Below, in pieces: positions 11,882 through 29,718 of a DNA stretch of 32,000 nucleotides. Origin of the DNA: Bdellovibrionales bacterium (GTDB taxonomy: Bacteria; Bdellovibrionota; Bdellovibrionia; Bdellovibrionales; UBA1609); the NCBI GenBank assembly GCA_963692945.1, contig OY843585.1:30001-62000 (forward strand). Reading direction: 5' to 3'. The notes beneath the pieces are model-generated. The model was given only the letters and a program-made list of their open reading frames with translations, was not told the origin of the DNA and ran no database searches. The position numbers and the translations under genes were made by a program. Positions within the stretch are counted from its first letter, which is position 1; each line of letters begins with the position of its first letter.

Positions 11882-12568
11882 CTAACCTAATAAATCACAG
11901 CCTAAAAAATTTCTTTTAGTTTGGAGGCAAGATTCCAAAACGGAAAAACTACCACTTGCTGGGTCAATAACAACATCTTCTTGTTCAGTAACTGCTTCAA
12001 TAAGTTTCATTTGTAACGCTAAAGGTTTTTGATGAGTGTGTTCTTTTTTTGAAATTTTTTCAAACCAAACATCTGGTATATTATGAATAGTCCAAACCCC
12101 TCTTGCTCTCTTCGGTTTTTTTTGTAAAATCAGTAAGTATTCACATTGTCTTCTTGTTCTATAGCCCATTCCAAATTTACCTTTATCCCAAGTTATCATA
12201 TCCACAATCTCTAAATCGGTCTGTTTGAACCAAGAACCTACACCTTCACATAAATGAAATTTATCAATCCATAAAAAAAGATGACCTGAAGATTGTAAGA
12301 CTCTACTGATCTCCTCTAAAAAAAACCCTATCTCCTCTTCAGACATTTGTTGTAAAGCAGACCTTTTCATTCCTCGTTTTTTTCCCTCATTGCCATAACT
12401 CATTTTATCTAAAACTCCTCTATACTGAGGATCAAAAAAACAAGCTGAAACGAATTGATCTTCCAAACAAGAAAGAAAAGTCAAACCTTCCATTTGAATT
12501 CTTGTATTGTATTTTATATTTTCAAGATTGTACTCTGTAAAAGATAAATCTAATAAATGAGATTCCAT
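11882..12568 (-). CDS. Orphan beta-class (N6-adenine or N4-cytosine) DNA methyltransferase
   Basis: Motif IV-like FFDPQYRG comes first and the motif I region [36 protein letters not shown] comes last, which is the circular permutation of the N6_N4_Mtase family. No restriction endonuclease gene is adjacent. I prefer the ATG at 12566-12568 (SD AAGGA with a 7-nt spacer) over the track TTG at 12574. Confidence 0.7.
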
Positions 12569-12780
12569 TCTCAATCCTTTTTAGAAAGTTTTATAGACTC
12601 AGGCTAAGAGATATAAGAGTCTCTGTAAAATTTTTATCGTCAATTCACAAGACAAAAGACTCGTTTTCAAGAAATAAAAAATCCTACATGTTGGCATCTA
12701 CAAAGTCTGGAGTTGCTGAAAGCAAGGTGTTTTCTATTTTTTATCACCGAAAATGATTCAAGAAAAGAAATTTCACTGGA

Positions 12781-15099
12781 TTATGTAGCATCTTCTTCAA
12801 GATTTTCTATTCTTTTTATAAGAGAGTTTAGATTCTGGTTCAGCTGTTTATTGTCTTTTTTGAAAGATTGGTTTTCTTTCTTTAAAGAAGATAGTCCTCT
12901 TTCTAATTTTTTGTTTGCAGATATTAATTTTTTCTCTGTTTGAAGTTGAGTCTTTTTTAGTTTTGTCATTTCTTTTGTAATAAAAGCGATGGATTTTGTA
13001 AGAGTAATTACAGACTCCTTAATAGAGGTTAGAGATTTTACCGTAAAGATGTAAAACTCTTTAAAAGATTTTATAATAATAGGAATAAATCCTTGAATGT
13101 TTAAATTTAAAGTTTTCTCTTTATCTGAATTTTCCGACACCAATTCTGGATATTGTTTTTGAACCTCTTGAGCAATAAAACCAATCTGTTTTGTCTGAGC
13201 TCTATTCTTGTCTCTCCAAAAGAAAGTTTTAGGATTTAATTTCAAAATGGAACCAAGTTGTTTTTTTAAATTTTTAATCTTGGTTTTAAGTCGGCGATCA
13301 GATGCTGGACATCCAAATCTTCCATTGGCATCTGCTCGAATATTACAACTTCTAACAGATGACACAACTAAATCTCCATCAATAGCAATAGATTGTCTTT
13401 TTGATGGTTTCCCTATAATCAAATCCCCATCAATGGTGACCGATTTTGTTCCTGACATATTCCCTTTAATCAAACCACCAATATCCAATTTGTAACTTTC
13501 ACTCCCGCAACCGAAAGATTGACAACCAGATCGGTATCCAATAGCAATATTATAATTTCCTGTTGTGTTAGAAGAACTAGCACTATCTCCGATGAGATTA
13601 TTGTGAATTCCAACTGTGTTTTGATAACCTGCTTTAGGCCCCATGAAGTTATTGTGACCTCCAGTGGTGTTTCTATAACCAGATAGACGCCCGATGAAGT
13701 TATTAAAATTTCCTGTTGTGTTTTTATAACCAGAAAGATTCCCTATGAAATTATTATTGTGTCCAGCCGTGTTGGCAAAACCAGACTGATATCCAATGAA
13801 GTTGTTGTAAGCTCCATTTGTATTTCTATAACCAGCACTATTCCCTATGAAATTATTATTGCGTCCAGCCGTGTTGGCAAAACCAGACTGATATCCAATG
13901 AAGTTGTTGTAAGTTCCATTTGTATTTCTATAACCAGCACTATTCCCTATGAAATTATTATTGTGCCCAGCTGTATTGGCAAAACCGGACTGATATCCAA
14001 TGAAGTTGTTGTAAGTTCCATTTGTATTTCTATAACCAGCATTATCCCCTATAAAGTTATTACGACTTCCAGTTACATTGTGATAACCAGATCCATAACC
14101 GATGAAGTTGTTGTAATATCCACCTGTGTTTTTATAACCAGACTGATATCCAATGAAAGTGTTCTTGTATCCTGTTGTATTTGAACGACCTGCTTGATAA
14201 CCAAAAAAAGTATTTTCTGAACCTGTTGTTAATTTCCCAGCTTCAAAACCAAAAGCGGTGTGTTTATTTACATTTACATCTATTGTTCCTCCACAACCAA
14301 CTAAACTGAATTCACCAGTAGAAGCATCTGTCACTTTATAACATTCTGGATCTCCACTTCCTCCTCCATCAAGAGCTACAGAACCACAAACATCTCCTGC
14401 ATAAGTTAAAGGGGTTGTATCTGCAATTATTAAATCAACAATCTCCTTTTCTTTTTGTATTTTTACTGCGGCTGTTAGATTGCTTAATGCTTTATAGTCC
14501 GTTATCTTTGTTTGTATATTTGCAGGAAGACCAGACTTCCCATCTGCTTTATCAATAATCTCTCCATAAAAAAGAGAACAACATTGAGAGGCTTTCACTG
14601 GAACTTTAAAATCCCAATTTGAATCCAAAGTCCCTACCCCTTTTAAGTAAATGATTTTAGGTTTTTTATCTGCTGGCACTCCTGTTTGACAATCTAGCAA
14701 CTCTGAGTCTGTTATGGCTGTGCAATCTCTAGATGCAAATGTAAAACCTGAAGGCTTGTTACTTATGTTATCATTTAAAATTTGCAAACATTTTTTATTA
14801 TTATCCATATTCTTTGAATTGTCTTCATTCGCAAATCTATCTACAATAGATTGAATCTGCATCACTTTCCAAAGTTCACTATTGGACTCTCTTAATTTCT
14901 TTTGGGCCGTGGATTGATGAACAATAGATGTTCCCACTCCTAAAATAACTATAGTTCCTATTACTGATGCAATAACAACACTAACAATAGCAGAACCTTT
15001 TCTATTTAATAAGGGATTAAATTTTTTAAGAAAACTTTTTGTGAGATGGATTAGGAGTTTTCTTTCTAGATTTAATATTCTTTTCATAGATAATTTCAT
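12781..15099 (-). CDS. Membrane-anchored, phage-tail-fibre-like trimeric fibre protein with a C-terminal peptidase-S74 intramolecular chaperone domain
   Basis: 772 aa. Residues 1-35 form a basic leader ending in RKG. Residues 36-60 are a hydrophobic helix, SAIVSVVIASVIGTIVILGVGTSIV. Residues 100-270 contain 8 Cys. Residues 281-536 hold about 15 copies of the 17-aa repeat NNFIGxxxGxxNTxGxx. Residues 600-685 read SDRRLKTKIKNL...LNPKTFFWRD...QIGFIAQEVQKQYPELV, a peptidase S74 / endosialidase-chaperone signature. Residues 690-772 are a K/E/L/N heptad-rich coiled coil. SD AAGGA lies 5 nt before the ATG. Confidence 0.85.
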   Translation of the reverse strand: MKLSMKRILNLERKLLIHLTKSFLKKFNPLLNRKGSAIVSVVIASVIGTIVILGVGTSIVHQSTAQKKLRESNSELWKVMQIQSIVDRFANEDNSKNMDNNKKCLQILNDNISNKPSGFTFASRDCTAITDSELLDCQTGVPADKKPKIIYLKGVGTLDSNWDFKVPVKASQCCSLFYGEIIDKADGKSGLPANIQTKITDYKALSNLTAAVKIQKEKEIVDLIIADTTPLTYAGDVCGSVALDGGGSGDPECYKVTDASTGEFSLVGCGGTIDVNVNKHTAFGFEAGKLTTGSENTFFGYQAGRSNTTGYKNTFIGYQSGYKNTGGYYNNFIGYGSGYHNVTGSRNNFIGDNAGYRNTNGTYNNFIGYQSGFANTAGHNNNFIGNSAGYRNTNGTYNNFIGYQSGFANTAGRNNNFIGNSAGYRNTNGAYNNFIGYQSGFANTAGHNNNFIGNLSGYKNTTGNFNNFIGRLSGYRNTTGGHNNFMGPKAGYQNTVGIHNNLIGDSASSSNTTGNYNIAIGYRSGCQSFGCGSESYKLDIGGLIKGNMSGTKSVTIDGDLIIGKPSKRQSIAIDGDLVVSSVRSCNIRADANGRFGCPASDRRLKTKIKNLKKQLGSILKLNPKTFFWRDKNRAQTKQIGFIAQEVQKQYPELVSENSDKEKTLNLNIQGFIPIIIKSFKEFYIFTVKSLTSIKESVITLTKSIAFITKEMTKLKKTQLQTEKKLISANKKLERGLSSLKKENQSFKKDNKQLNQNLNSLIKRIENLEEDAT
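13030..13302 (-). other. Peptidase S74 (intramolecular chaperone auto-processing) domain of the fibre protein
   Basis: The S600-D601-R-R-L-K-T-K-I motif is followed by LNPKTFFWRD, IGFIAQEV and YPELV. This matches the conserved layout of endosialidase and tail-fibre C-terminal chaperone domains. Confidence 0.8.
13494..14259 (-). repeat. Coding array of about 15 tandem 51-bp (17-aa) units, consensus NNFIGYxSGYxNTxGxx
   Basis: Read directly from the translated protein, aa 281-536. The units begin TAFGFEAGKLTTGSE, NTFFGYQAGRSNTTGYK, NTFIGYQSGYKNTGGYY, NNFIGYGSGYHNVTGSR and continue to NIAIGYRSGCQSFGCGS. Confidence 0.9.
13761..14066 (-). repeat. Three tandem copies of a 102-bp (34-codon, two-unit) higher-order repeat
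   Basis: Copy 1 (13761-13862) and copy 2 (13863-13964) differ at 2 of 102 positions. Copy 3 (13965-14066) is roughly 88% identical to copy 2. The period is a multiple of 3. Confidence 0.9.
14920..14994 (-). other. Hydrophobic N-terminal anchor of the fibre protein, PilX_N/pseudopilin-like
   Basis: RKG|SAIVSVVIASVIGTIVILGVGTSIVHQSTAQKKL has a Gly before a ~25-residue hydrophobic helix followed by a polar Q-rich stretch. From memory this resembles PilX-type minor pilin N-termini (no Glu at +5). It could equally be a plain signal-anchor. Confidence 0.35.
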
Positions 15100-15296
15100 G
15101 TGTATCCTTAATTATAAATGCAAATTCTATAATATCAATAGGCCTAGAAAGACATTCTCATTTTGAGACATTTTATTTTAACAATATCTAACTTATTAGC
15201 TCTATAAAAAAAATCTCATTTTTAAGATTTTCCAAGAACTGATTCTCATTTCTATTTGTATGGAAACAAAAACATCTTCCTAACTTAAATTTTTTT

Positions 15297-17537
15297 TCAA
15301 AGAAAGGAATGGTAGAGACGAAATAAACTTGTTAATAAATGAGCCGATTGAATCTTATCCTCATTATCTAATAATTGTTTTAATGAAATCCAGTGTAATC
15401 TGTTGTTTTTCAATGGATTGACTTCCACAACAAAAGGGTAAACTATCTCTGGCGTAATTCCCATACTTACTCTGTAATCCGATCCTAAAGGAGATATATT
15501 GTTTATCTTTACTTTAAAATCTTTCTCTAACTGATGAGTTGAATATTCTCTAGCCAATGTCATTGTACTTTTATCTTTTGGAATACGATAAGCAGGTACG
15601 GTGGGAAGAATAGAATTCTTATTAAATATTTGAGGGATAGGAAGATCTCTTACCTCTAATCCTACATATATTTCCCCATTAGACTTAAAAACAGGAATAA
15701 AAGAAACAGTGTGATGCGAAACATGTTTAGGTAAAACATATTCTAATGGATAGGTATTAACAGTAAATCCTCTGCTATTGATTTCTAAAAATTCCCCTAC
15801 CTTAACGTCAGCATAATCTACTTTTTGTTTTGTAGATACCCATGACTGTTTTTTCTTCATTCCTTCAAAAGAAAAAACATTAGATAATTTAGGAAGAGGT
15901 ATTTCTTTTAAAGAAATAGTATCTCCTATCCACTCTTCAAATGAAAGATTGTTGTATTTAAGCAATCTGTATATATTGATCTCTAACCGTGAATCAAAAG
16001 CTCCTCCCACTTGAAAAGCTCTTAAAGCATGCCCTGCTTCTGTATAAGTAAGATGGCCTGATATATTATTGTATTTCTGTCCAATATTTACAAAATAAGG
16101 AGATATTTTTTCTGCAATAAGACCTTCAGATGAATAATAAGAATTTTCTACATGGATGTCATTTAGATCGATTTTTTTAATCAATTTATATTTTTCAACA
16201 ATTAGTTTTTTTAAAGAAGCTATTTCACTTTGATTTGTAGTGGTTACTAAAGGTTCATTAACATAACCTCCAGAGTAAACATCTCTTAAATGAGGCGTTT
16301 CTAGATTAGCATTTATAATTCCTCTAGGGTATCCTTTACGACTTACAATATAAAGCTTATTTTCATTTTTAAAATAAGGAATGACATCAATCACAGGAAA
16401 AGGACGTTCTATAATTTGTAAAACTTCTTTTGTATCTTTATTTTGCATATATTTTATTTTTAAATAACTAGAGTCTTTAGATAAACTTCTTTTTTCATAA
16501 ATTTTTACACCTTCATCCTCATTAACCTTTTCTCCTATAGTTAAAATTTTTGTAGGAGGATAAGGAATAGGATTTCCATTTGTATCTTGTAACTTTATTT
16601 TATCTTCAAATCGGTTTTTATATATCCATTCATTGTAAATAGGTCTTGAAACTAAAATTCTCATTTGATTCATCCTATAAATTTCTTCTATTTGATTTTG
16701 TGACATATAAAGATACTCTTCTTTTATTTCTGCTTTCCAGTTAGATAAATAATCTTTATGATGGAGAAATTCTACAATAGTGCGAAGATCTAATTCTATA
16801 GTACTCCATTTTTTATTTTTCTGAATTATTTTATAAGGTATGGAATCTTTATGAATGCTACTACGAAATTCTTTTGCAAAAAGTTTAAATATCTGAAAGG
16901 TAGATAACTCTGTAAGTTTTTGATTACCTTTACCATCATCATTTCTTAATTTTAATTGTGCCGTAAGAGAGCCTTTAGGAATTACAAAATCCCTTAGCAT
17001 AAAAATACCACCATTTTTTAATTGTTCTATTTGATTAAAAAAGGCTTTAATCCCTTCAAGTAAACTATAACCTTCACCAGAAAAACTTGTTACATGATGA
17101 ATAACTGAAGAATTAATAATAGCATCTAAAGAATTATCAGGAAATATTTTTTTAGAAATATCTCCCTGTTTATAACTTAAATTGTCCGCTTCATATTTGC
17201 TACTAGCATTTTCTACCATTTTTGGATCAATATCTACACCAATGACTTTAGTATGCGGATAGGAATGAGCTATAAAATGGGTGGCTTTCCCTGTTCCAGA
17301 ACCCATGTCTGCAACAACTCCTTCGTTTGGAAGATAAAAAGACATCATAGCCATTTTTTCTAAATCCATTCGTGGAGGCGACTTTAAATAATGCTTTAAA
17401 TTCCCTTTACTGATTGCATATTTTCTAGGTATTTTTGTTAAAAAACTATCTTTACAAAGTTGAGACGATAGAGATAGAAAAGGAAATAAAAGAAGAGCAA
17501 TTAAAAGGGTTTTCATAGAAATATAATGCATTATCAT
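15297..17537 (-). CDS. Signal-peptide-bearing class I SAM-dependent methyltransferase fused to a ~500-aa duplicated domain of unknown function (possibly degenerate Nudix folds)
   Basis: 746 aa. The N-terminus MKTLLIALLLFPFLSLSSQ looks like a Sec signal. The methyltransferase motifs are motif I VVADMGSGTGKATHF, motif II KVIGVDIDPKMVENA, DAIINSSVIHHV and NGGIFMLRDF. Residues ~380-540 and ~595-746 align to each other: VIDVIPYFKNENKLYIV with TVSFIPVFKSNGEIYVG, YYSSEGLIAEKISPYFV with YRVSMGITPEIVYPFVV, and DSRLEINIYRLL with SAHLLTSLFRLY. Confidence 0.7.
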   Translation of the reverse strand: MIMHYISMKTLLIALLLFPFLSLSSQLCKDSFLTKIPRKYAISKGNLKHYLKSPPRMDLEKMAMMSFYLPNEGVVADMGSGTGKATHFIAHSYPHTKVIGVDIDPKMVENASSKYEADNLSYKQGDISKKIFPDNSLDAIINSSVIHHVTSFSGEGYSLLEGIKAFFNQIEQLKNGGIFMLRDFVIPKGSLTAQLKLRNDDGKGNQKLTELSTFQIFKLFAKEFRSSIHKDSIPYKIIQKNKKWSTIELDLRTIVEFLHHKDYLSNWKAEIKEEYLYMSQNQIEEIYRMNQMRILVSRPIYNEWIYKNRFEDKIKLQDTNGNPIPYPPTKILTIGEKVNEDEGVKIYEKRSLSKDSSYLKIKYMQNKDTKEVLQIIERPFPVIDVIPYFKNENKLYIVSRKGYPRGIINANLETPHLRDVYSGGYVNEPLVTTTNQSEIASLKKLIVEKYKLIKKIDLNDIHVENSYYSSEGLIAEKISPYFVNIGQKYNNISGHLTYTEAGHALRAFQVGGAFDSRLEINIYRLLKYNNLSFEEWIGDTISLKEIPLPKLSNVFSFEGMKKKQSWVSTKQKVDYADVKVGEFLEINSRGFTVNTYPLEYVLPKHVSHHTVSFIPVFKSNGEIYVGLEVRDLPIPQIFNKNSILPTVPAYRIPKDKSTMTLAREYSTHQLEKDFKVKINNISPLGSDYRVSMGITPEIVYPFVVEVNPLKNNRLHWISLKQLLDNEDKIQSAHLLTSLFRLYHSFL

Positions 17538-17774
17538 CCTACAGTGTTTTTTTACAATTCAAATTAAAAAGAATAATTACAGATAAATATCTTAAAATTA
17601 AAAATATTTTTCATAAAAATTCCCTGATTTGCAGTTGAATTATAACATAGCAAGCCCATTGCAAATAAAGATATTTATAGATTGAATTTTTTACACTTTT
17701 ATATAGTAGTTGTTTAAAAAAAATACAATCTAATTTATTATTTAAAATGTCTCTTACTATTGATTCTTATTTTC

Positions 17775-18977: not shown

Positions 18978-20091
18978 TTACATCACCCTACTTTTTAAAT
19001 AAGATTCAATAAAAAAATCAATATCCCCATCTAAAACCTCTTTAGGGTTTGTATGCTCTATTTGAAATCTATGGTCTTTGACCATTTGATAAGGATGTAA
19101 AATATAAGAACGGATTTGACTCCCCCACTCATTCGCTTTTTTAGAAGATTCTCTTTCTACTCTTTCTTGTTCCTTTTTCTCCATTTCTTTTTTATGTAAA
19201 GCCGCTTTTAACATTTTCATAGCTTTATCTTTATTGGCATGCTGGCTTCTTTGGTTTTGACATTGCACAACTATTCCCGATGGCAAATGAGTGATACGAA
19301 CAGCAGAATCTGTTTTGTTCACATGCTGCCCTCCTGCTCCACCCGATCGGTAAGTATCTATTCTTAATTCCTCAGGGTTGACACTCACTTCTAATTGGTC
19401 ATCAATATCAGGCCAAGAAGAAACAGAAGCAAAACTTGTATGCCTTCGGGAATTGGAATCAAAAGGACTGATACGAACCAAACGATGAACACCGGATTCC
19501 CCTTGCAAATAACCATAGCTATAAGCTCCTTTGATTAAAAGAGTGACAGATTTAATTCCTGCCTCCTCCCCTTCAGTTAGAGATAAAACTTCCATCTGAT
19601 AGTTTCGCCTTTCAGCCCATCTAAGATACATACGATATAAAATATAAGCCCAATCCGCCGCTTCTGTTCCTCCAGAACCAGAATGAATAGATAAATAAGC
19701 ATTGTTCAAATCATTTTCTTTATTTAACAATCCTGCAATCTCTTGTTTTTGCACCTGAGAAGATAGTTTTTTTAAATCCTCTTTATATTGTAAAAAAGAT
19801 TTTTCATCTTTTTCTTCTCCTATAAGATCTAAAAGGACAACATGGTCATCAATGGATTCTTTAAGGGTCTTCCACTCTGTTATAATTTTTTCTAATTGAG
19901 TTTTTTCTTGATTAAGTTTTTGAAGTTTTTTGTGGTCTTGCCAAACTTCTGGCTTCTTCATCTCTTCATTTAGTTCTTTGAGTTTTGCTTTTTTACCCTC
20001 TACATCAAAGACACCTCCGCAAGTCATCCGCTCTATACTTCAACTTCTCTAAAAGATCTTTAACTTCCACTAATTCTGCTACTAAAGACAT
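18978..20091 (-). CDS. prfB: Peptide chain release factor 2, expressed through a programmed +1 frameshift: join(20008..20091, 18978..20006) on the minus strand
   Basis: The track ORF (18978..20027) lacks the true N-terminus. Frame 0 starts at the ATG at 20089-20091 (SD GGGAGGA upstream) and encodes MSLVAELVEVKDLLEKLKYRADDLRRCL before stopping at TGA (20005-20007). The sequence GGAGG TGT CTT TGA T matches the E. coli prfB shift site AGGGGG TAT CTT TGA C. The +1 frame continues DVEGKKAKL... and carries the SPF and GGQ motifs. Confidence 0.93.
20002..20019 (-). promoter_or_regulatory. prfB: prfB autoregulatory +1 frameshift site (internal SD-like GGAGG, 3-nt spacer, CUU UGA)
   Basis: The plus strand reads acatcaaagacacctccg, which reverse-complements to CGGAGGTGTCTTTGATGT on the minus strand. 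The in-frame TGA is at 20005-20007 and the slippery CTT at 20008-20010. Confidence 0.9.
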
Positions 20092-29361: not shown

Positions 29362-29718
29362 CTATTTTGACAAACAAGAAGGTTTAGTGAAGTTTGCAAT
29401 TAAGTTTTTTTCAAAGGATTGATACTTTGAATCATTTGGATTGCGTAACACTTTTAAACACCTTGTATAACATTCCATTTTCTGTTGCTCATTGCTAACA
29501 ACAACGCTGCTGAATGGTGTTGTTTTTTCAAAACCACTACTCTCACATTCCTCTAAACAATAATCGTTAATTATACGACTACATCTTTTAAGGTTCTTTT
29601 CTGGGTTTTTATAATTCTTTTCACTTCTTTTAAGGTTCTTTTCTGTGTTTTTACTATTCTTTTCACTTTCACCACAAGAAACAGTCACTATAAAAAATAA
29701 AAATAAAAAAACTTTCAT
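29362..29718 (-). CDS. Small Cys-rich putative lipoprotein with an internal 14-aa duplication
   Basis: 118 aa. The signal peptide MKVFLFLFFIVTVS-C has a lipobox-like VSC. The duplicated stretch reads EKNSKNTEKNLKRS / EKNYKNPEKNLKRC. Seven Cys follow the lipobox Cys, including pairs C51/C55 and C83/C87 spaced CxxxC. No homology recognised. Confidence 0.5.
   Translation of the reverse strand: MKVFLFLFFIVTVSCGESEKNSKNTEKNLKRSEKNYKNPEKNLKRCSRIINDYCLEECESSGFEKTTPFSSVVVSNEQQKMECYTRCLKVLRNPNDSKYQSFEKNLIANFTKPSCLSK
29585..29668 (-). repeat. 42-bp in-frame tandem duplication (39/42 identical) inside the lipoprotein gene
   Basis: 29585-29626 reads cttttaaggttcttttctgggtttttataattcttttcactt and 29627-29668 reads cttttaaggttcttttctgtgtttttactattcttttcactt. 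Confidence 0.9.

Follow-up and report, generated by a model that had tools for sequence, protein, structure and literature searches.

A gene on the minus strand of a Bdellovibrionales bacterium contig (OY843585.1; the gene lies at 15297..17537 of the 32,000-nucleotide stretch from 30,001 to 62,000, hereafter the window) encodes the core of a class I S-adenosylmethionine (SAM)-dependent methyltransferase (MTase) followed by a C-terminal module of 407 amino acids, predicted to be a tandem of two ADP-ribose pyrophosphatase (ADPRase)-like Nudix folds in one chain. Our preferred reading, held with slightly less than even confidence, is that of a SAM methyltransferase whose tandem Nudix module would bind ADP-ribose or another nucleoside diphosphate (NDP)-type ligand, and which would be exported in this lineage. 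Hundreds of soil and predatory bacteria encode the family, which their sources describe only as "methyltransferase," leaving a C-terminal half of 400 residues without a domain model; no model in Pfam, NCBIfam, or the PDB sequences covers residues 340–746 of the window protein (the target).

The target open reading frame (ORF) comprises 746 amino acids from its first ATG, at 17537. The probable start is the second ATG (17531–17529), two codons downstream, which is preceded at a distance of 5 nt by AGGA (17540–17537) and is where an identical database protein of 744 amino acids (P0001) begins. The gene defined in this way occupies 15297..17531, with its stop codon at 15297–15299. A Sec-type signal-like N terminus (residues 1–24, 17460..17531) and a Cys motif just past it (C26-K-D-S-F, 17442..17456) precede the MTase core (ORF residues 64–190, 16968..17348) and a family-specific MTase extension that is conserved along with the core (ORF residues 191–339, 16521..16967). 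The two predicted Nudix-fold halves follow, half 1 from ORF residues 340–544 (15906..16520) and half 2 from 545–746 (15300..15905), all on the minus strand. Half 1 is assigned from the structural model, Foldseek matches to ADPRases, its own sequence profile, and column counts; half 2 is assigned from profile alignment to half 1, an EvaA alignment that runs across both halves, and column counts.

A Predicted Tandem of Two ADPRase-like Nudix Folds

The AlphaFold2 (AF2) model of residues 340–746, built from a 105-sequence alignment, has a mean predicted local distance difference test (pLDDT) score of 95 and a predicted template modeling (TM) score of 0.94. In this model each half places β strands ahead of a Nudix core. 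Half 1 comprises an N-terminal β sheet and an ADPRase-like α/β/α sandwich, and half 2 has the same topology. A Foldseek search of the PDB returned EvaA (4J7G/4J7H) as the top four matches, covering the whole module (443 columns, E = 4e-11, TM score 0.56/0.51). These are followed by a long list of ADPRases, including the K. pneumoniae and E. coli enzymes (1G0S/1GA7/1VIQ for the latter) and human NUDT5, each of which matches one half (E ∼5e-9, target-normalized TM score ∼0.70, probability 1.00 for many). EvaA and ADPRases were again among the matches when a low-depth model of the full-length protein was searched. The ADPRase-like layout that a sequence-only reading of the window had proposed by eye for each half is thus borne out by the predicted structure and its matches.

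That reading had also seen an internal duplication in this region. Pairwise BLASTP between the halves does not rise above chance (E = 0.2 over 15 amino acids), so the claim required a comparison of profiles. Using 105 homologs, hhalign aligns the two halves over 164 columns (probability 95.8%, E = 7e-9), from the first β strands to the C-terminal helix, matching ORF residues ∼354–530 with ∼571–746; an independent comparison of 20 with 19 sequences gives a probability of 94.4% and an E value of 9e-8. The duplication is therefore supported by both profile alignments, although it escapes pairwise search.

Among PDB sequences, the half-1 profile matches NudK and one ADPRase only (E 0.2–0.4), both in register through the SPGG..E motif and the C-terminal helix, and a C-module profile of six sequences retrieves noise only, with NudK at E ∼1. 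Since these profile E values are not significant, the fold assignment rests on structure prediction rather than on sequence statistics. Each half nonetheless shares with ADPRases and NudK (E. coli NudF, 1G0S/1GA7; K. pneumoniae, 9DSZ; NUDT5; NudK, 3O61) the overall layout, an SPG..E-type motif past the box helix, and a C-terminal helix. In the window protein these motifs read YYSSEGLIAE and YRVSMGITPE, and in the family consensus YYTSPGGINE and YFSSPGVTPE. The module differs from ADPRases in that its box glutamates are replaced, its tandem is covalent where ADPRases form a homodimer, and its sequence similarity to them is not significant.

The canonical Nudix box, GX5EX7REUXEEXGU, is found in neither half. 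Column counts over the 105 sequences (C-module numbering, here and below) show that half 1 keeps a single box Glu, whereas half 2 has no trace of the box. What half 1 retains is G85 and E89 (G..E), a partial box helix of the form R/K-x-L-x-E, and the SxG...E motif; the box helix has the consensus V-x-R/E-I-L-R-E-R-A-N/G-L and reads L-K-K-L-I-V-E-K-Y-K-L in the window protein. The loss of box glutamates in both halves, first noted in the window protein, is accordingly a family-wide feature and not a peculiarity of this one sequence.

The C-module is not decaying. The invariant and near-invariant set of half 1 comprises R39, D45, R66, E89, E137, G172, R178, and E180, of which G172, R178, and E180 are strictly invariant. 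In half 2, E260, S268, Q297, R312, and G354 are invariant, and H394 and R401 are nearly so; D176, N182, E246, E289, E358, D392, and H404 of the module are likewise near-invariant. This pattern suggests that, as in EvaA, a site of another type, for binding or for catalysis, has been conserved. The sequence-only reading had taken the pair to be catalytically dead and hence to bind a ligand. The loss of the box stands, but ligand binding in place of hydrolysis is one option only, because EvaA, the best structural match, catalyzes a non-hydrolytic reaction without a box, and "dead" may therefore mean re-purposed.

EvaA is a sugar 2,3-dehydratase, each subunit of which contains two Nudix-fold domains, with pocket A active and pocket B a remnant of the duplication (PMC8987622). 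Like the target module, EvaA (PF03559) carries two Nudix-fold domains that arose by duplication in one chain and has no functional hydrolytic box; it binds NDP-linked ligands in pockets formed by the two halves (PMC8987622). E139 and E190 are the paired catalytic Glu residues in pocket A of EvaA. The effector domain of NrtR, an ADP-ribose-responsive repressor, is a degenerate Nudix domain that binds ADP-ribose without hydrolysis, and NrtR genes and operators lie beside the family gene in several genomes, as described below. The NUDT9-H domain of TRPM2 is also said to be a degenerate Nudix fold that binds ADP-ribose without hydrolyzing it. In NrtR and TRPM2, however, a single Nudix domain is joined to a DNA-binding domain or an ion channel, whereas in the target a tandem is fused to an enzyme.

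An Intact Methyltransferase Domain Is Near-Obligately Paired with the Module

The class I SAM-methyltransferase assignment made from the sequence was confirmed. Four Pfam models, Methyltransf_25, 11, 31, and 12, match target residues ∼64–190 with E values from 1e-14 to 6e-10, all above their gathering scores; the bit scores of the first three are 55.3, 54.6, and 52.0, against cut-offs of 27, 21.2, and 27, respectively. The motifs DMGSGTG, GVD, GD, NSSVIHHVTSF, and RDFV are intact, and both motif I (ADMGSGTGK) and the acidic residue ending strand 2 (in IGVDID) are conserved in the family and in its signal-bearing members. Similarity to NCBIfam PRK06922 covers residues 74–337 and so takes in the extension. 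The PDB sequence matches of the MTase are small-molecule MTases, and the full-length model gave Foldseek matches to the core. The best matches to residues ∼60–340, YcgJ (1XXL), phosphoethanolamine N-MT (3UJ6/4IV8), and MM_2633 (3DTN), share the Rossmann-type SAM core with motifs I–IV. They have neither a tandem Nudix module nor a signal peptide, and being generic they give no substrate class for the target. The domain is predicted to be an intact SAM-binding MTase. PADLOC found no known anti-phage defense system, only a generic MTase similarity to mad2 over residues 58–179.

The size of the family became apparent only with deeper searches. A first word-indexed search returned six proteins, and the C-module profile 104; when all 50%-identity representatives were searched, 460 matched at E ≤ 1e-3, of which 230 also did so at E ≤ 1e-30. 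The family is carried by 117 GTDB species genomes, and its clusters fall mostly in Acidobacteriota, Myxococcota, Bdellovibrionota, and Vulcanimicrobiota; by record titles the carriers include Pyrinomonadaceae, Blastocatellia, Myxococcota, Bdellovibrionota, Vulcanimicrobiota, and a Chlamydiae metagenome-assembled genome (MAG), among others. Archangium minus, Cystobacter fuscus, and Vitiosangium are cultivated Myxococcota among them. Source labels are "class I SAM-dependent methyltransferase," "UbiE," or "hypothetical." A hidden Markov model (HMM) of the N-module finds the MTase and its extension immediately ahead of the C-module in 96 of the 100 long representatives, which makes the pairing of MTase and C-module near-obligate.

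Members of greater length also carry a true NUDIX domain at the N terminus, an APH-type kinase, or a Zeta-toxin-type kinase, all of them nucleotide-related partners, or else ∼300 residues with no Pfam match. The last arrangement, with the additional residues at the N terminus, is seen in a sizeable group of proteins of about 1000 amino acids (P0193, P0195, P0200, P0214, P0221, and P0232), in which alignment of the MTase to the family HMM begins only at about position 75, and the region of SAM motif I may have been lost.

Neighborhoods in Other Genomes Suggest an NrtR-Controlled Module

We surveyed the neighborhoods of 86 loci. No neighbor is conserved in all of them, and the largest clusters of neighbors cover 9 loci. 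Clusters of the Pyrinomonadaceae type (purF-like and rhodanese-like by eye, with no family search) look like clade-level synteny, whereas a kinase-like cluster spans phyla. Thirteen of the 86 loci, from Acidobacteriota, Myxococcota, and Bdellovibrionota, adjoin a recurring set of genes. NrtR lies beside the family gene in 7 loci, an isochorismatase-type protein with nicotinamidase as its best NCBIfam match in 6, vWA and PP2C genes in 3–4, and NAPRTase in 2. A protein-kinase-like gene is present in 9 and abuts or overlaps the start of the family gene (within about 100 bp) in 6 of these.

The fullest arrangement is that of L017 (1373–10127; L057 and L032 are similar), in which NAPRTase, NrtR, the nicotinamidase-like isochorismatase, a vWA-like gene, PP2C, and the protein-kinase-like gene are followed by the MTase-tandem-Nudix gene. 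We take the vWA/PP2C/kinase trio to resemble the TerY-P triad of Aravind and colleagues. In two Bdellovibrionota loci (L012, 2019–4598; L064, 5222–7800), a cytoplasmic family gene is divergent from an operon comprising an SPFH/Band-7 protein, a middle ORF of ∼310 amino acids, and then NrtR. The middle ORF of L012 has weak similarity to NAD kinase (E = 1e-4), and that of L064 is of the same size and in the same position. At L037, kynureninase and a flavin adenine dinucleotide (FAD) monooxygenase lie upstream of the family gene and an NPP-type nucleotide pyrophosphatase downstream.

A search of 89 loci (∼1.25 Mb) for operators found the bare palindrome AGTGT-N7-ACACT in exactly 6, all from the associated set: L012 4618–4656, L064 7876–7914, L029 7068–7084, L032 7597–7613, L042 12221–12237, and L057 2227–2243. 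Chance alone would give about six matches to the bare pattern over 1.25 Mb, but it would not account for the constant spacing, the longer consensus, the location at promoters, or the confinement of the sites to the associated set. The extended 21-bp consensus, TTAGTGT-N7-ACACTAA, is often followed by GTCAAG, which on the opposite strand reads as a −35 box. The consensus agrees with the NrtR signature in the literature, a palindrome of 21 bp built on the core GT-N7-AC, at which binding is released by ADP-ribose (PMC2330246), and we therefore read it as an NrtR-type operator. Five of the six operator loci encode NrtR nearby; L057 does not. The conserved palindrome and its associated genes suggest an undescribed NrtR-controlled module.

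Taken with the ADPRase-like fold, and specifically the ADPRase-like motifs of half 1, the fact that in other phyla the gene is repeatedly linked to NAD genes under NrtR control points to a ligand derived from NAD or ADP-ribose; this evidence is circumstantial. A rival candidate for the ligand is a nucleotide sugar. If the tandem were an EvaA-like NDP-hexose dehydratase or isomerase and the MTase then methylated the sugar, as happens in deoxysugar pathways, the protein would be a bifunctional tailoring enzyme, as might be expected from EvaA being the top whole-module structural match (TM score 0.51–0.56) and from the invariant Glu and Arg and the conserved His, which could be catalytic. A UDP-GlcNAc 2-epimerase-like ORF, judged by eye and not by family search, lies nearby in eight Pyrinomonadaceae-type loci. 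The target family is, however, only 10–11% identical to EvaA, shows no match to the Pfam Hexose_dehydrat model even at E ≤ 10, and carries a fused MTase that EvaA lacks. No deoxysugar cluster surrounds it: neither 4,6-dehydratases, glycosyltransferases, nor other deoxysugar genes recur nearby, and the associations seen across phyla are instead with NAD and ADP-ribose genes. We regard a sugar-tailoring role as improbable.

The N Terminus of a Small Branch Is Predicted to Direct Export

The hydrophobic N terminus quoted in the sequence-only reading, MHYISMKTLLIALLLFPFLSLSSQ, is present, and it has the layout of a Sec signal cleaved by signal peptidase I (SPase I): an n-region with one Lys (K7), a hydrophobic core of 14 residues (TLLIALLLFPFLSL), within the usual 7–15, and a polar c-region (SSQ) with small residues at −3/−1. 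Candidate cleavage sites are SLS↓SQ and LSS↓QL, and the N terminus reads MHYISMKTLLIALLLFPFLSLSSQLCKDSF. Its Kyte-Doolittle hydropathy peak of 2.9 is comparable to those of exported proteins encoded in the same window (Skp, 3.5; BamA, 2.7; a 118-amino acid lipoprotein, 3.1), and soluble cytoplasmic proteins of the window peak below 1.8. The claim of a signal-bearing N terminus is upheld to this extent.

Two other explanations of this segment were considered and rejected. A mis-called start does not account for it, there being no in-frame ATG, GTG, or TTG between M6 and M55. In three genomes, each of ∼30% GC (that of the window and those of P0002 and P0003), the frame stays free of stops and encodes a hydrophobic segment, and together these observations lead us to take the segment as translated. 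A lipoprotein signal, processed by signal peptidase II (SPase II), was rejected for want of a lipobox, [LVI][ASTVI][GAS]C: the residues before the Cys are S-Q-L in the window protein, K-K-S and N-S-K in P0002 and P0003, and P-A-D, V-V-D, or similar elsewhere, in contrast to T-V-S-C at the Cys site of the 118-amino acid lipoprotein.

Among 99 full-length homologs from the word search, only P0001–P0003 have a hydrophobic N terminus. Most others open with a conserved hydrophilic motif, Y.KQ.RG...Y..YF.GMD.SM, and ∼30 are called from a Met just after it. In the GTDB loci examined, the start codon lies just before this motif with nothing signal-like in frame upstream, except at L037 and L044. From this conserved hydrophilic N terminus in nearly all homologs and loci we conclude that the family is, as judged from sequence, cytoplasmic as a rule (about 95% of members), the other 5% or so having a predicted signal peptide together with a conserved Cys. 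The latter comprise 11 of 199 representatives (P0001–P0003, P0121, P0128, P0130, P0131, P0152, P0166, P0177, and P0240), and the named genomes that carry this form are two GTDB species representatives of the Bdellovibrionota, a Bacteriovoracaceae MAG (L037) and a Bdellovibrio sp. MAG (L044). A rough neighbor-joining tree places 10 of the 11 to one side of a split, along with five sequences that lack a signal. The export predicted from these signals is a derived trait, seen in a small branch with Bdellovibrionota as its named members. The sequence-only reading had made export depend on homologs not consistently lacking signal peptides. For the family at large they do lack them (96 of 99), and an exported family is not what was found; for the subfamily the claim survives, since the 11 representatives and the two MAGs have classical signals and the conserved Cys.

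All 11 signal-bearing representatives, and L044 as well, have that Cys as a single residue 2–11 positions beyond the probable cleavage site, and in most of them it is embedded in C-x3-[FL], for example in P0001–P0003, P0121, P0128, P0130, P0152, P0177, and P0240. The whole protein contains 1–3 Cys in signal-bearing members, whereas the family median is 5, and their SAM motifs are unchanged. A search for a disulfide-partner Cys confined to signal-bearing members was negative. Outside the window clade, signal-bearing members have AXA-type cleavage sites (for example AHA↓, VFA↓A, and VLA↓A) and a neutral or acidic early mature region.

The same segment could instead be an uncleaved anchor, N-out/C-in or a re-entrant helix, which would tether a cytoplasmic enzyme to the inner membrane and do away with the paradox of a SAM-dependent enzyme outside the cytoplasm. 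In the window clade the flank past the hydrophobic stretch is strongly basic (+3, +3, and +1) and the n-region has only 0–1 positive charges, both in keeping with an anchor, and the catalytic and family-conserved residues are unchanged relative to cytoplasmic homologs. The hydrophobic cores are only 12–14 residues long, however, with a helix-breaking Pro or Gly and small −3/−1 residues typical of cleaved signals. BamA of the same window, encoded in the same AT-rich genome, has a similarly basic early mature region (+2). The acidic or neutral mature N termini and AXA sites of the other signal-bearing members, and their depletion in Cys, also argue for cleavage. We consider an anchor unlikely, and lean toward translocation of the target protein across the inner membrane.

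The Target and a Fiber Gene Form a Single Two-Gene Indel

Next to the target lies a gene for a fiber protein of 772 amino acids (12781..15099, minus strand), with a membrane-anchor-like N terminus, NNFIG..AG..NT.G repeats, an S74 chaperone/protease domain, and a C-terminal coiled coil. Pfam Peptidase_S74 matches it with E = 2.6e-15, and the domain contains SDRRLK (SDxxxK). The fiber resembles the S74 group of Bdellovibrio MAT fibers (PMC10769870). A promoter-like site with 11 of 12 matching positions lies just upstream of it, at 15138–15111. Within the gene, at 13750–14190, are tandem near-identical 102-bp units (34 amino acids, ...NNFIGNSAGYRNTNGTYNNFIGYQSGFANTAGHN...), which give promoter-like matches exactly 102 nt apart and a repetitive antisense ORF (13759–14184).

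In the two closest relatives, L086 and L087 (RF2 83–84% identical), the same Pfam-annotated gene order is found on both sides, and only 180–243 bp separate LolE from the DNA methylase gene (L086 12257–12436; L087 12258–12500). The ends of this spacer align with the outer ends of the two intergenic regions of the window. From the aligned ends and the otherwise shared gene order, target and fiber are one two-gene indel of ∼5 kb relative to these relatives, with an approximate extent of 12650..17760 in the LolE/DNA-methylase intergenic region. No obvious flanking repeats or mobility gene were found at the indel. The linkage of target and fiber is local to this genome: no S74-domain gene is called beside P0002 or P0003, several of whose neighbors have no Pfam match, and the ORFs scanned around L044 (four) and L037 (six) do not include one either.

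This arrangement bears on whether the protein is delivered. An effector handed to prey or host, perhaps with the fiber, as the sequence-only reading hypothesized, could methylate a nucleotide-linked metabolite or a macromolecule using the SAM of its victim and so benefit the predator, a proposal that overlaps our preferred reading and adds delivery to it. MTases that act outside the producer cytoplasm on victim SAM reportedly include Legionella RomA/LegAS4, Chlamydia NUE, and M. tuberculosis Rv1988; these are said to be SET-domain or other enzymes that reach histones or DNA through type III or type IV secretion systems or other routes. The target differs from them in having a Sec-type signal only.

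Several features are in keeping with delivery. The signal-bearing subfamily has intact SAM motifs, its named members are predatory Bdellovibrionota, the window itself is Bdellovibrionota-like, and the contigs of relatives encode ankyrin and SET proteins. The target shares its indel with the S74 fiber, and Bdellovibrio MAT fibers are deposited into prey (PMC10769870). A Sec signal, on the other hand, leads only as far as the periplasm, and no further secretion signal or dedicated system is linked to the gene. The fiber seems to have its own promoter, S74-type genes do not accompany the signal-bearing relatives at the positions listed above, and the absence of both genes from this site in the two closest relatives shows the pair to be dispensable there. 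Delivery is, on balance, rather unlikely, if somewhat less so than a membrane anchor. A more specific form of it, in which an ADP-ribose- or NAD-linked MTase, once cytoplasmic, is exported as a weapon, enters prey with or alongside MAT-type fibers, and draws on prey SAM to methylate ADP-ribose, NAD, or a related nucleotide signal, is a long shot; if true, it would disable prey NAD homeostasis or nucleotide-based defense signaling, and both the type of secreted effector and the nucleotide modification would be new.

Proposed Explanation

In the explanation that we prefer, a SAM methyltransferase with a ligand-binding tandem Nudix module, the class I core and its conserved extension would always be followed by two ADPRase-like Nudix folds in one chain. 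The tandem would reproduce within a single polypeptide the domain-swapped homodimer of ADPRases and NudK, as in EvaA, and would offer one or two pockets for an NDP-X ligand, most likely ADP-ribose or another NAD-derived nucleotide. The MTase would either methylate the bound ligand or be gated by it. The branch to which the window protein belongs would have gained a cleavable Sec-type signal and a conserved Cys near the mature N terminus, and the protein would cross the inner membrane and act at a site where SAM is present, in or on prey for instance. The target gene would have been gained or lost together with the S74 fiber gene.

A number of observations weigh against this explanation. With regard to the fold, the half-2 profile has no Nudix or ADPRase-like match among PDB sequences; each half, when compared by hhalign with a shallow alignment of seven NrtR Nudix domains, lines up in register without reaching significance (E 0.06–0.13); and Pfam gives neither a NUDIX (PF00293) nor a Hexose_dehydrat (PF03559) match on the target at E ≤ 1, nor any match at E ≤ 10 for six diverse C-modules. 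In the full-length model, which would give the orientation of the MTase relative to the C-module, the pLDDT is only 70. With regard to the ligand, the NAD and ADP-ribose neighborhoods account for ∼15% of loci, none of them from the window clade, and the window itself has no NrtR box (one match at 3 mismatches, against 2.25 expected). With regard to export, the early mature region of the window clade is Lys-rich (+3), which could disfavor export or flip the topology, and a SAM-dependent enzyme has no cofactor in the periplasm.

If the preferred explanation is broadly right, the combination of an EvaA-like tandem of degenerate ADPRase folds with placement in NrtR operons gives a testable class of ligand. 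It points to an undescribed methylation step on a molecule derived from NAD or ADP-ribose, or to control of an MTase by ADP-ribose. SAM enzymes with predicted export from the cytoplasm are rare, and the signal-bearing Bdellovibrionota branch provides one; if truly exported, it would be a candidate predation factor.

Genomic Setting and Other Features

The window is an ordinary chromosomal stretch, with the gene order TolQ, histidine kinase, PilC/PilT/PilB, RibF, Skp, BamA, LolD, N6/N4 DNA methylase, fiber, target, LolE, RF2, YbeY, MurJ, HolA ... H+-PPase. By RF2, the one marker used to assign the phylum, the best named relatives are Bdellovibrionales MAGs, at ∼59% identity. The small N6/N4 DNA methyltransferase (11882–12574), which lies between LolE and LolD, matches the PADLOC Type II MTase model with E = 1e-85. 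It is kept in the same place in both close relatives, no restriction enzyme is seen nearby, and it is probably an orphan methylase.

On the contigs of other family members (L005, 1–7630, and L001 among them), the signal-bearing ortholog P0003 has as neighbors two PLD-type genes and a series of Peptidase_M3 ORFs that are fragmented, either as pseudogenes or through errors of assembly, it may be. The P0002 contig has several ankyrin-repeat genes and a ParE toxin, and the P0004 contig has SET-domain and nucleoside deoxyribosyltransferase genes. Such features are all common in host-associated bacteria.

Elsewhere in the window, the RF2 ORF (18978–20027) begins MTCGGVFDVEG..., after the usual programmed +1 frameshift site, and a short N-terminal frame is expected just upstream of 20027. 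The predicted 118-amino acid lipoprotein used above for comparison (29362–29718; MKVFLFLFFIVTVSC↓GES) has Lys/Asn-rich repeats (EKNSKNTEKNLKR...) and no Pfam match.

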